From an uncultured delta proteobacterium (GTDB lineage Bacteria; Desulfobacterota; Desulfobaccia; Desulfobaccales; 0-14-0-80-60-11): DNA of 64,000 nt. Location: assembly GCA_963812015.1 (NCBI GenBank), contig CAWETI010000003.1:1696001-1760000 (forward strand), in the 5' to 3' direction. Each line of letters begins with the position of its first letter. The stretch's first letter is position 1. A model generated the notes under the pieces. That model was not told where the DNA came from and ran no database searches. It worked only from the letters and a program-made list of their open reading frames with translations. This document shows positions 6,806 to 56,393 of this stretch, in pieces. The position numbers and the translations under genes were made by a program.

Positions 6806-9210
6806 TGCTGAAGTGGCTGCCTGCAAGCCGTCTGGCCTGGTGCCTGGCTGCGGCCCTGCTCGCCCTCACCGGACTGGCCTGGCATTTTGAGGCCGCCACC
6901 CGCCTGGCCCCTGAGGCCCTAAAACCCCGGCCCGGCCCCCTGGTATTGGACCGCACGGGCCGGATACTGCGGCTGACGCCCGAGGCCCAGGGACGCAAGC
7001 TCGTCACCCTCCCCGACCAGGTCGTCCCCCCCATCGTGGCAGCGGCCTTCGTAGCCGCGGAGGACCAGAGGTTCTGGCGCCATCCGGGCATCGACCCCCT
7101 GGCCATTCTCCGGGCGGCCGCCGCCAACCTGACCCATGGCCGCATCGTGTCCGGGGCCTCCACCATCACCCAGCAGTTGGCCCGCCTCACTTACCCAGGA
7201 CCCCGCAGCTATTATCGCAAACTGGTGGAGATGGGGCGCAGTCTCAGGCTGGAGATGGCCTTGAGCAAGGACGAGATCCTGCGAAGCTACCTGGACCGGG
7301 TCCCCCTGGGCAACAACCTCATGGGGGTGGAGGCCGGGGCCGGGGCCTATTTCGGCAAAACCGCCTCCCAGTTGAGCCCGGGGGAAGCCGCCCTCCTGGC
7401 CGCCCTGGTCAAGGCCCCCGGGGCCCTGAACCCTTATGGCCCCCACCAAGCCCGCCTGTTGGCCCGGCAGCGCTGGGTTTTGGGTCGCATGGTCCGGCTG
7501 GGGTATCTCAGCCCCCAGGAATTTCAGGCCTGCCAGGCAGAGCCCGTGAAGTTCCGGGGCGACGGCCGCCACCCCCCGGGGTTCCCGTTTGAGGCCCCGC
7601 ATTTTGTCAATCTGGTCCTGGCCCGGGAGCCCGCGGCGCACCCGACTTCCCAGCGGATCAGGACGACGTTGGATCTGACCCTCCAGCGCCGGGCCCAGGC
7701 CATTGTTTATTCCCACCGGGCCCGGCTCGCCAAAGCCGGCGCTTCCCAGGCCGCGGCGGTGATTGTCGCCAACGCCTCCCGGGAGGTCCTGGCCCTGGTG
7801 GGTTCCTGCGCCTATAGTCCCCGGGACCAGGGATTTAATAACGGCGCCGCCGCCTGGCGTTCCCCCGGCTCCACCCTTAAGCCGTTCCTCTATGCCCTGG
7901 CCCTGGACCAGGGATTCACCCCCGCCTCGGTGCTGGAAGACGTGGAGCGGCGCTACTCCACCCCCCGGGGCGAGTTTGTCCCGGCCAATTTTGATCGCGT
8001 CAGCCACGGTCCCGTTTCTTTCCGCGAGGCCCTGGGCAATTCCTTGAACCTCTCGGCCGTGCACCTGCTCAACTTGATCGGGCCGGCAACCTATTACGAC
8101 ACCCTGGCCAGCCTGCACCTCATCAACCGCCCGGAATTCACCCCGGACCACTACGGCCTGGGTCTGGTGGTGGGCAACCCCGAAGTCAGCCTCCTCCAAC
8201 TGGCCGGGGCCTATGCCAGCCTGGCCAACGGCGGCAGGTTCGCCCCCCTGCGCCTGACTTTGGCGGACCCTCTCGCGGATGAGACGCCGCTCTTTTCGCC
8301 CCAGGCGGCTTTTATCATCAGCGACATCTTGAGCGACCCCATGGCCCGGGCCCGCATCTTCGGCGGCGCCGCGGCCATGAACCCGCCTTACCGGATGGCC
8401 ATCAAAACCGGGACCAGCACCAAGGCCCGGGATTTATGGACCGTAGCCTATACCCCGGAGTATACCCTGGCGGTGTGGGTGGGCAATTTCAACGGCCGCC
8501 CCACCGGCGATCTCAGCGGCGCCGGTAGCGCCGCGCCCATCGTGGCGGACCTGGCTGCGATCCTGTTTGCCTCGCATCCACCCCAGCCGTTTCTCCGGCC
8601 CGAGGGGGTCGTCAGCGCCGAGGTGTGCGCCTTCTCCGGGATGAAACCCGGGCCGGGCTGCGTCCACCGACGCCAGGAGCTGTTCCTGGCCGGCACCGAA
8701 CCCCGAAGGTTCTGTTCCTATCACCATCCCCGGGAACCCTGGCACCGCATGCCCACCAATTTTGCGGGCTGGCTGCATCAGCGCTACGAGAAAGGCGAGG
8801 CCGGGCGCTTTCGCCTGGCCGACTTCGACCAGGACTTGGGGAAAACCTTCCAGGGCCCGGTGGCCGCCGCCCCTGACGCCGGGGCCGTTTCCGGCCGCCA
8901 GGGAACCTTCTCGGGCCTTGGGGTTCAACCGCCGACCCCGGACCGCGGCCTAGCGCTTCGGGTCAGCATCAGCTACCCCCTCTCCGGGGACCGGTACCAG
9001 TTGCCGCCTCGGGCCGAAGCCATCCGGTTGACCGGGAAAGCCCTGTGCCGGGACCCGGTCAAAACCATCACCTGGTTTGTAGATGGCCGGGAAGTCGCCG
9101 CCACCGGCCCCCCCTACGAGTTGCCCCTGGAACTGCCACGGGGCCGCCACCGTCTCACTGTGGTCGGTCCCGGCGGTCAGGGCGACGTCGTAGAGGTGAC
9201 CGTCCAATGA
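6805..9210 (+). CDS. pbpC: Penicillin-binding protein 1C
   Basis: ATG overlaps the a2M stop (TGATG). Transglycosylase EDQRFWRHPGID and GASTITQQLAR; transpeptidase SPGSTLKP, SLN, KTGTS; C-terminal PBP1C domain (WFVDG). Confidence 0.93.
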   Translation: MLKWLPASRLAWCLAAALLALTGLAWHFEAATRLAPEALKPRPGPLVLDRTGRILRLTPEAQGRKLVTLPDQVVPPIVAAAFVAAEDQRFWRHPGIDPLAILRAAAANLTHGRIVSGASTITQQLARLTYPGPRSYYRKLVEMGRSLRLEMALSKDEILRSYLDRVPLGNNLMGVEAGAGAYFGKTASQLSPGEAALLAALVKAPGALNPYGPHQARLLARQRWVLGRMVRLGYLSPQEFQACQAEPVKFRGDGRHPPGFPFEAPHFVNLVLAREPAAHPTSQRIRTTLDLTLQRRAQAIVYSHRARLAKAGASQAAAVIVANASREVLALVGSCAYSPRDQGFNNGAAAWRSPGSTLKPFLYALALDQGFTPASVLEDVERRYSTPRGEFVPANFDRVSHGPVSFREALGNSLNLSAVHLLNLIGPATYYDTLASLHLINRPEFTPDHYGLGLVVGNPEVSLLQLAGAYASLANGGRFAPLRLTLADPLADETPLFSPQAAFIISDILSDPMARARIFGGAAAMNPPYRMAIKTGTSTKARDLWTVAYTPEYTLAVWVGNFNGRPTGDLSGAGSAAPIVADLAAILFASHPPQPFLRPEGVVSAEVCAFSGMKPGPGCVHRRQELFLAGTEPRRFCSYHHPREPWHRMPTNFAGWLHQRYEKGEAGRFRLADFDQDLGKTFQGPVAAAPDAGAVSGRQGTFSGLGVQPPTPDRGLALRVSISYPLSGDRYQLPPRAEAIRLTGKALCRDPVKTITWFVDGREVAATGPPYELPLELPRGRHRLTVVGPGGQGDVVEVTVQ

Positions 9211-54237: not shown

Positions 54238-55113
54238 TCAAGACTGCCAGAGATAAGGCTGGAAGTTTAGGGAAGTTGGGCTCAGGGTGGCCAGGGCCCA
54301 GCCGCAGCCCCGGGGGCCCAGGCCAGGACGCCAGAACGCCGGGGTGCCCTGCACGGCCTGAGGAAGCGGCCAGGCGGTGGCAGGCAGAGATATGTGGTTT
54401 TGGGTTTTGGGTTTTCGGTTTTCAGCAAGACTTATGACCTCTGGCCTATGCATATGCCCGTGCATGCACAGCACCCGGGGAAATTGAGCCAGCAGGCGGA
54501 TCACCTCCGGGGCGTCCCCGGTCCATTGCTGCCAGGGATGAAAGAGGCGGGCCAGGGGGGCGTGGGATAGGATGACCAGGGGTGTGGCCGGGGTGAGTTT
54601 GGCCAGCTCCCGGGCCAGCCACTGGCGTTGGGGCACGCCGACCTCAAAGACCAGGCCCCGGGAAGTGCGACTCAAGGCTGGGTCCAAACCGATAACCTGA
54701 GCCCCCCGATACCCCCGGGAAAACCCCGGCACCCCGAAGCGCCGGACCCAGGCGGAGTCTCCGCCGGGGCCGTGATCCCCTTCCCCCCGCACCGCCCATA
54801 CCGGCCCGGGCAGGTTCGAGAGAATTTCCCGTCCCAAATCCAGGGCGTCGGGGCGGCCCCGATGGGCCAGGTCGCCGGCAAAGAGCACCAGGTCAGGCTG
54901 CGGCTCGAGCGTGCGGATTTCCGCCACCGCCCGGGCCATAGCGGTAGCCTCGGGGCGCTTCTCATTGCCGTCTTTAAGATGGGCGTCGGCCAGCAGCGCC
55001 AGGCGCAGCTCCGGGTCCGCGGCCCGGGCAGGCCAAGGCCAAGCAAGCCTCCCCAAGGCCCACCCTCCGGCCAGCCCCAGCCCCATCTGCTTGATAAATT
55101 CCCGCCGGTCCAT
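54238..55113 (-). CDS. Tat-exported calcineurin-like metallophosphoesterase
   Basis: MDRREFIK twin-arginine signal; DAH, GDL, GEGD, SHAP, HGHMH. Confidence 0.85.
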   Translation of the reverse strand: MDRREFIKQMGLGLAGGWALGRLAWPWPARAADPELRLALLADAHLKDGNEKRPEATAMARAVAEIRTLEPQPDLVLFAGDLAHRGRPDALDLGREILSNLPGPVWAVRGEGDHGPGGDSAWVRRFGVPGFSRGYRGAQVIGLDPALSRTSRGLVFEVGVPQRQWLARELAKLTPATPLVILSHAPLARLFHPWQQWTGDAPEVIRLLAQFPRVLCMHGHMHRPEVISLAENRKPKTQNHISLPATAWPLPQAVQGTPAFWRPGLGPRGCGWALATLSPTSLNFQPYLWQS

Positions 55114-55261
55114 TACCTGCCATTGTAGCAAAATTTCCCTGAAAATCGAGTCTGAAAACCCCGGCAGGGCCGGGCGGCGGCGGGAGCGCCCACAGCCTCC
55201 CGTCTCAGGAGGCGCAGTGCAGTGGAAGCCGGGCCAGGGAAGGTGAGGCAGAGGTTAAAAT

Positions 55262-55630
55262 GAAAAGAAGCCGGGGACCCAGGCGCCTCCTTGCCAGGAG
55301 GGGGATTCACCTGAAGTTCCCCGGCTTCCCGGGACCACGAAACCTTTTTCACTCCCCCTTGAAGGGAAGGCGTCGGCCCACAGGACCGAAACGTTTCGTA
55401 GCCATTCTCACTGCTTCGGCAGCGGAGCTGGCATCTATGGCCGCTTCCGGCAATCAGCGCCCCGCCGGCTTATCTCAAACTCTAGGTCAAAAGCCGACGT
55501 TTGCTCAGGGCCAAAGCAGGTTGCCATGTCATTCAGCCTGGCGGGTGACCCTACCCTTATCGGGTGCGGCCTGTGATGGCCGCCTCCCCGTAACCTTTTT
55601 ACCAGGTGCCCAGACTGGATGTCCTAGCGA
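55262..55630 (-). ncRNA. Candidate large structured ncRNA, about 365 nt (unassigned family)
   Basis: Promoter-like TTGTTT-N16-TATAAA just upstream; many hairpins with G.U pairs valid on the minus strand; terminal GAAGCCGGGGA/TCCCCGGCTTC stem followed by TTTT. Confidence 0.6.
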
Positions 55631-55811
55631 TCATATTTATAATTACCCATTTCGAAAAAACAAGGGGGAGGGGGTTTTTTTATAAAAATATTTTAGATAG
55701 GAAACCCAGGCTTTCCTGGAAAAGCAGATCAGGGCGAACACTGAGGTCCGCCCCGACAAAAACAGGTATTTTCATCAACCGAAACCCGAAAACTGGCAAC
55801 CAAAACCCGTC

Positions 55812-56393
55812 TTACAGCACCCCTTTGGTGGAGGGTACCCCGGTAGCCCTCGGTTCCGGCTGGGTGGCCACGTCCAGGGCCCGCCCCGCCGCCTTGAATA
55901 CCGCCTCCAGGATGTGGTGGGTGTTCTCCCCATAGGGCACGCTGATGTGGAGGGTCATGCCGCCGTGGATACTCACGGCCCGCCAGAACTCCTTGAGTAG
56001 TTGGGGGTCCAGCCCCGCGCCCCCCGGGGGCAGCTCCACCTCCAGGTGGAGGAAGGGCCGGTTGCTCAGGTCCACGGTCACCTGGGCCAGGGCCTCGTCC
56101 ATGGGCACCCGGGCCTCTCCATAACGGCGTACTCCCGGCCGCTGGGCCAGGGCCTCCCGAAAAGCCTGCCCCAGGCAGATGCCGATGTCTTCCACGGTGT
56201 GGTGCTGGTCTACCGCGAGATCCCCCGCGGCCTTGACGGTCAGGTCAAAATACCCGTGGGCCGTGAAGAGGTGGAGCATGTGATCGAGAAACGGGATGCC
56301 GGTGTCGATGGCAGCCCGGCCGGAGCCGTCCAGTTCCAATTCCAGATTGACTTCCGTTTCCCGGGTCCGGCGGTGGATTTTGCTTAAGGGCAT
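55812..56393 (-). CDS. hisB: Imidazoleglycerol-phosphate dehydratase
   Basis: RRTRET, FLDHML, DQHHTVED, PMDEAL, NTHHILEAVFKA, PSTKGVL. Confidence 0.97.
   Translation of the reverse strand: MPLSKIHRRTRETEVNLELELDGSGRAAIDTGIPFLDHMLHLFTAHGYFDLTVKAAGDLAVDQHHTVEDIGICLGQAFREALAQRPGVRRYGEARVPMDEALAQVTVDLSNRPFLHLEVELPPGGAGLDPQLLKEFWRAVSIHGGMTLHISVPYGENTHHILEAVFKAAGRALDVATQPEPRATGVPSTKGVL

Follow-up and report, generated by a model that had tools for sequence, protein, structure and literature searches.

The interval between hisB and a metallophosphoesterase gene on this contig raises the question of whether it encodes a new, large, free-standing RNA or a complex attenuating leader for the Tat phosphoesterase gene downstream, the two readings offered by the original prediction. 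The window, by which we mean the whole 64-kb stretch of DNA analysed, was compared with known RNA families, and the interval was folded and compared with its homologues. The locus is predicted to be a non-coding RNA gene, present once in the source genome (G000), with its own promoter and intrinsic terminator. Its parts and neighbours are as follows.

55257 to 55629, minus strand: predicted RNA of ~370 nt, from folding and covariance models, its probable start near 55629
55675 to 55681, minus strand: A-tract 5′ of the promoter, putatively UP-element-like
55636 to 55663, minus strand: sigma-70-type promoter, with -35 at 55663-55658, a 16-nt spacer and -10 at 55641-55636
55257 to 55328, minus strand: intrinsic terminator, with stem 55328-55267, inner hairpin and U-rich tail
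55321 to 55332, minus strand: P14, a short hairpin in competition with the terminator's 5′ arm, conserved above shuffled controls
55812 to 56393, minus strand: hisB gene (PF00475), upstream context
54238 to 55113, minus strand: metallophosphoesterase gene (PF00149), downstream context
55122 to 55130, minus strand: extended -10 site of the phosphoesterase gene, not part of the RNA, conserved in genus g1

A strict consensus scan called neither the promoter nor the long terminator of the RNA, but the arrangement that had been proposed is conserved among homologues. All 57 tabulated copies have the start of a -35 element followed, ~16 nt on, by an A/T-rich -10 element, most of them with an upstream A-tract, and A is the commonest base at four positions 14-17 nt 5′ of the -35 element (35-47 of 57 copies). 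Terminator stem and U tail are visible in nearly all of the 59 copy flanks printed, and promoter and terminator accompany each copy, tandem copies included. P14 reaches 5 bp or more in 43 of 58 copies, compared with a mean of 17.6 (maximum 26) after shuffling of its 5′ half. Behind hisB lies a terminator-like hairpin of its own (55757-55728).

Folding against shuffled sequences agrees with the minus strand as the folding strand: z is -4.63 there, with none of 100 shuffles as good, versus -1.92 (3 of 100) for the plus strand. All of the sequence words originally listed are present on this strand, and covariation is strand-specific and compatible with G-U pairs. With a structure drawn from the same sequences as those tested and with slid controls that ignore relatedness, an 88-pair model has 91.4% of cells paired in 25 close copies, with two-sided changes at 27 pairs (controls 31-48%), and in 46 diverse copies, after removal of pairs with less than 60% support, 87.0% of cells are paired and 43 of 77 pairs show two-sided changes (controls 31-45%). 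These compensatory changes support three predicted domains of ~70-110 nt, each with a closing stem of ~10 bp, lying side by side in the order D1, D2, D3 and followed by the terminator.

55523 to 55628, minus strand: domain 1 (D1), with P0 (55628-26/55525-23) and P1 (55620-11/55540-31), which closes hairpins P2, P3/P4 and P5
55411 to 55519, minus strand: domain 2 (D2), with P6 (55519-10/55420-11), P7 and a three-way junction bearing hairpin P8 and arm P9/P10
55334 to 55402, minus strand: domain 3 (D3), with P11 (55402-393/55343-34), which closes hairpins P12 and P13

Among the consecutive stems of the original prediction, the first, fourth, sixth and seventh and the terminator stem are conserved helices, while the remaining ones lost to competing pairings when compared on 25 homologues. 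Stem 2, paired in 79%, is outcompeted by P3 (92%) and P5 (88%). Stem 3 (55552-55546/55513-55507) is 84.6% paired with no two-sided changes, whereas the rival pairing of its loop with 55489-55484 reaches 94.0% with 14; the local hairpin of stem 5 reaches 78.0% with no changes, whereas long-range pairing of its 3′ arm with 55519-55510 reaches 95.9% with five. The A-rich motif reported near both ends is not a conserved repeat, its 5′ copy being a loop of variable length in which most homologues have no A-run. The modularity of the three domains, a loop-loop contact and versions on mobile elements had all been missed.

The contact joins the following two loops, both identified by covariation.

55546 to 55551, minus strand: loop L5 in D1, 5′ strand of the contact
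55484 to 55489, minus strand: loop L8 in D2, 3′ strand of the contact with L5

An unbiased covariation scan ranks L5-L8 first (G-C in 15 and A-U in 7 of 25 copies). Comparison across clades indicates that the predicted contact is retained and its partner rewired: it is L5-L8 in genera g1 and g8, in g9 L5 is instead complementary to part of D3, over 5-7 bp and in two sequence variants, for 9 of 13 rows, and all 11 D2 units without D1 have L8-L10 complementarity of 4-8 bp. By its closing stem, three-way junction and two complementary loops, the ~115-nt D2 is comparable with the phi29 pRNA; this is a likeness of description, and no packaging-motor genes were seen near the RNA.

Larger RNAs offer another comparison. 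ROOL, GOLLD, OLE and the raiA motif are likewise free-standing, multi-domain and covarying, with long-range loop-loop contacts and a poorly known function; unlike them, the present RNA is smaller, has no Rfam match, is confined to one order in our searches, and has domains that occur alone, doubled or recombined and contacts that change partner. According to the available part of PMC12286853, ROOL and GOLLD are found on phages and prophages, and their intermolecular kissing loops were initially taken as tertiary contacts. The complementary loops could here, too, pair between molecules into dimers or rings, making an RNA-only self-assembling particle as in ROOL, GOLLD and OLE. Complementary loop pairs in most versions, the self-complementary 4-nt core of the loop pair in D2 units and the association with mobile elements described below would fit; against it stand the blindness of covariation to the difference between intra- and intermolecular pairing, the size of the RNA, below that of GOLLD and of ROOL (659 nt in one example), and about ten copies without a clear loop partner. 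We regard such a particle as decidedly improbable, and as compatible with the decoy or scaffold role proposed below.

We then sought to learn how widely the RNA is distributed. A DNA search gave matches in 23 of 61 genomes, all from the family of the source genome. Two covariance models, R1 (25 sequences) and the broader R2 (46 sequences), converge on 60 places. These are full-length copies, one to three per genome, and occur in 42 of the 83 genomes of Desulfobaccales. Carriers comprise 17 of 18 genomes in g1 (the source genome counted), 9 of 9 in g8, 13 of 15 in g9 and a single genome in each of g10, g11 and g12; no full-length copy was found in g14 (0 of 8) or in six smaller genera of the family, and g4 gave one short, weak match. 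About 25 genomes of the family have no full-length copy, and thus the RNA is dispensable at the family level. In g8, the two or three copies cluster by position across species, with starred support, so the duplicates appear to be old and retained.

Outside the family, R1, run with strict filters, found no match in a sample of 146 genomes from the other families of the phylum. A third model, R3, was also negative across the phylum, a result weaker than it appears because five inner helices are off register in R3 (18-59% paired). A D2-variant DNA search of 301 genomes of the phylum gave, outside g4, only matches of 20-42 nt. A pattern scan, which is no full census because the pattern matches just 21 of 59 known members, yielded 37 stretches in species genomes, of which R1 confirms 20 and leaves 17 unconfirmed, all six stretches with Acidobacteriota, Terriglobales or Terriglobia in their titles among the latter; in metagenomes, R1 confirms all 27 loci. 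Titles of the named carrier records are Desulfobaccales, Desulfobacca or looser, such as Deltaproteobacteria. One contig titled Sedimentisphaerales (L104) also carries the RNA; its flank shares 77.5% identity over 1165 nt with a Desulfobaccales g8 locus, and it is therefore probably misbinned. Among viral contigs there was one unconfirmed pattern match, single queries of phage and plasmid collections gave none, R3 matched none of the 21 loci examined among 80 viral ones that have a DUF1599 relative, and a small ORF adjoining the RNA gave no viral relative.

Rfam 15 gave no gathering-score match anywhere in the window, the best E value within 55150-55810 being 0.2, to unrelated families, and none over the variants of the RNA; no riboswitch family matches the RNA or its variants. 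The hallmarks of RNase P RNA, tmRNA, SRP RNA, 6S RNA, T-box leaders and common riboswitches had originally been reported as not seen, and our comparisons agree. RNase P RNA, tmRNA and SRP RNA each score over the cut-off elsewhere in the source genome, and the overlap of R2 with the RNase P gene (12 bits, E 0.48) is at chance level. Two tmRNA genes with equal scores occur there on different contigs (C3:1901-2247 and C5:25265-25611), possibly through assembly redundancy.

T-box leaders have an invariant UGG in the antiterminator bulge and precede amino-acid genes; the similar stretch here is the paired 3′ arm of P11, varies in several copies and precedes unrelated genes. CsrA genes are present, but a sponge of the CsrB/RsmZ type was rejected, with 8.2 GGA per copy versus 7.4 in shuffled sequences and 2.2 ANGGA versus 1.5, just 0.16 per copy of the latter unpaired. 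A bacterial Y RNA was set aside after the Ro60/TROVE domain (PF05731) was not found in the source genome, and a type I toxin mRNA or small-protein gene after no common reading frame emerged (indel lengths modulo 3 of 1, 2 and 0 number 179, 87 and 61). For RNAs that serve as guides or templates, such as those of omegaRNA, retron or group II intron type, no common linked gene appears in the ORFs read, and both ends of the RNA are conserved, though a partner could act in trans. An ancestry of D2 in 5S rRNA, suggested by eye, was not borne out: host 5S against 35 D2 units gives z from -1.5 to 1.5, with no profile match. Separately, the source genome has partial 3′ copies of 5S (C3:360801-360922 and 361404-361518) ~1 kb and 1.6 kb past the intact gene, after inserted ORFs, resembling integration scars.

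No description of the RNA was found in the full-text literature, which excludes most subscription journals. The available main text of two 2026 preprints on language-model mining of prokaryotic non-coding sequence (10.64898/2026.10.21.760802 and 10.64898/2026.09.22.753630) does not mention Desulfobacc- names or Deltaproteobacteria, and their supplements may list the family. The conservation, the covariation, the promoter and terminator of each copy and the absence of an Rfam match support the first of the two original readings, a new free-standing large non-coding RNA. Its family of structured, modular RNAs is apparently undescribed and, in the genomes searched, confined to Desulfobaccales.

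Public RNA data weakly suggest that the RNA is transcribed. Twenty RNA runs are listed with a small share of the stretch. Metatranscriptome contigs from four runs in four studies, the runs used among 24 sequencing runs listed, are mostly of relatives at 80-99% identity, were selected for holding the stretch and are silent on strand, ends and level. All of those listed lie on 55273-55616, the predicted RNA contains nearly the whole of three of 262-277 nt, and no listed contig reaches hisB or the phosphoesterase gene; stretches left uncovered carry no weight.

The second original reading, an attenuating leader of the phosphoesterase gene, is mostly unsupported. In most g1 loci an extended -10 site belonging to this gene lies just 5′ of the start codon, the distance between gene and RNA ranges from ~55 to more than 1000 nt, and in g9 the two are unlinked. 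In seven RNA-free loci of other genera with both genes visible, hisB and the phosphoesterase gene are ~50-280 nt apart in four and separated by other inserts in three. A rough reading of ORFs shows varied neighbours (phosphoesterase, chemotaxis-like, CoA-ligase-like, transporter and others). The promoter-like site of the phosphoesterase gene and these variable neighbours make a leader role unlikely. The extended -10 site conserved in g1 lies ~8 nt 5′ of the phosphoesterase start codon, and the mRNA is thus probably leaderless or nearly so.

A more general cis role was also considered, in which D1-D3 would be tandem aptamers that respond to one or several ligands by favouring either P14 or the terminator, thereby setting read-through into the next gene. 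Like tandem riboswitches, the RNA has modules of aptamer size in a row, followed by a terminator with which a hairpin competes, and Desulfobacca acetoxidans has unusual tandem riboswitch clusters (available part of PMC9481103). In a crude ORF tally of 58 copies, the next gene shares the strand of the RNA in 40, lies on the opposite strand in 10 (some spurious, at least four firm), is absent in six and is replaced by another copy of the RNA in two; the 40 same-strand cases and the competition between P14 and terminator both fit a cis switch and count against the trans role preferred below. A version in which a D1-like domain is joined to D3 precedes an IHF-like gene in five loci. Unlike in tandem riboswitches, however, there is no known aptamer and no coherent gene set: the downstream genes, up to 1 kb off, share no evident function, and a promoter-like site of its own precedes the commonest of them. 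There are also the firm opposite-strand cases and the two tandem copies, and modules occur as well where no gene lies downstream. Versions on mobile elements have no P14 and face convergent genes. We consider a switch of this kind unlikely.

These shorter versions were uncovered by searching with the variant from G045, a genome of the sister family, and with one further variant. The weak R2 match in G045 consists of two D2 units followed by D3 and sits behind a type I-C CRISPR-Cas locus. D2 occurs alone at six loci in five genomes, D2-D3 at three loci in two genomes, D3 alone or doubled (D3-D3) in G029 and G091, and a D1-like domain fused directly to D3 and the usual terminator at 10 loci in nine genomes; homology of the D1-like domain to D1 has weak profile support (E 0.04-0.24) and depends chiefly on the common closing stem. 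Judged by eye, most of these loci begin after a similar promoter-like site. In G039, in G034 and at two elements of G026, tyrosine integrase genes (PF00589) lie within ~8 kb of the short versions, and two of these places also have primase domains. At five loci (L166, L167, L183, L169 and L170) the next gene is convergent, which leaves no cis target there. The five copies in g2 and g4 are 87-89% alike where compared and thus not independent.

The occurrence of short versions on mobile DNA suggests a free-standing decoy or scaffold and not a switch for a neighbouring gene. We propose that the RNA is a trans-acting, compactly folded protein decoy or scaffold taken over from integrative elements, a reading to which we give about an even chance. 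Comparison of the copies shows the gene, its borders, its fold, its modularity and the mobile-element contexts, while protein binding and a mobile-element origin are what we infer from them. Transcription of the RNA would start at a sigma-70-type promoter of its own and stop at its own terminator, the loop-loop contact would pack its three domains, and its surface would bind and titrate or organise a putative protein. Action in trans is likely because the neighbours are convergent or unrelated. Against this reading, no protein family that travels with the RNA was found among the ORFs read around the copies, and the RNA is dispensable at the family level. The domains would be portable, with one- and two-domain versions travelling on small integrative elements, and an ancestor of the six genera would have fixed the three-domain version in its chromosome, where it was duplicated and retained.

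A bolder extension of the decoy reading, which we think rather doubtful, is that independent domains are shuffled by mobile elements and host alike into RNAs of one to three domains, with programmable loop contacts, as decoys for a core host machine, such as RNA polymerase in a family that would have lost 6S RNA, or for a defence protein; if so, satellites and host would compete via versions of one RNA. The RNA could also be a selfish or inert cassette of non-autonomous mobile DNA, the structure of which matters as DNA or not at all. Patchy spread, varied sites and truncated or internally deleted copies (L162, L165 and L023) are what a cassette would leave, but the strand-specific, G-U-compatible covariation, the conserved promoter, old paralogues kept at one to three copies per genome and the lack of a common transposase in the ORFs read make this very improbable.

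Several loci around these versions have features of their own. The copy in G018 (L212:10004-10119) lies antisense within a 4361-aa strawberry-notch/LPD38 gene, and at L171, L174, L176 and L184 a D2 RNA with its promoter-like site is likewise antisense in a very long strawberry-notch/LPD38 frame. L165 (in G027) and L162 (in G011) are decayed copies, one the start of D1 joined to mid-D2 by an internal deletion, the other D3 with a partial terminator. At ~1430-1550 of L023 (in G012), a short ORF that encodes a hydrophobic peptide is joined to the RNA promoter and, apparently, to the first ~45 nt of the RNA, the remainder of which is absent.

RNA polymerase is also the candidate partner in another alternative. 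The Rfam 6S model detects 6S RNA in none of 69 genomes of the source family (source genome included) versus 11 of 14 of the sister family. In this order 6S RNA is a ~180-nt rod with a central bubble, behind zapA, and the present RNA does not fit this description; 6S lies in the zapA-rny gap in all three sister-family loci checked, and the gap of the source genome (L147:1790-2250, contig C2) has no match to Rfam 6S or to a three-locus profile. Since the family has no detectable 6S, a polymerase-binding role as a stand-in for it, like that of Ms1 in actinobacteria (which also have CoRP RNAs), is a testable rival. In the available parts of PMC9130861 and PMC11077062, Ms1 is near in size (~300 nt) and occurs where no 6S RNA has been found. 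Yet the present RNA has three side-by-side multiloops in place of the long rod with a central bubble common to 6S and Ms1 (available part of PMC9130861), a diverged 6S may have been missed, and G039 has both 6S and a D2 copy. As g14 (0 of 8), g3, g5, g6 and g7 have neither RNA, the pattern is suggestive only, and we hold polymerase binding, a hypothesis here, to be distinctly unlikely.

It is rare for a large structured RNA of bacteria to belong to no family, and several previous cases were later recognised as new ribonucleoproteins or as RNA cages. New here are the natural shuffling of domains and a tertiary contact that seems to switch partner between clades, which make the family a compact system for studying the evolution of ornate RNAs. 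It is also a candidate for what replaces 6S RNA in this family, where none is detectable, and may link small integrative elements with their host at the level of RNA. Elsewhere in the window, at 8362-8457 on the minus strand, ARAGORN calls a tRNA-like gene of 96 nt, below the Rfam gathering level, with a four-base anticodon.
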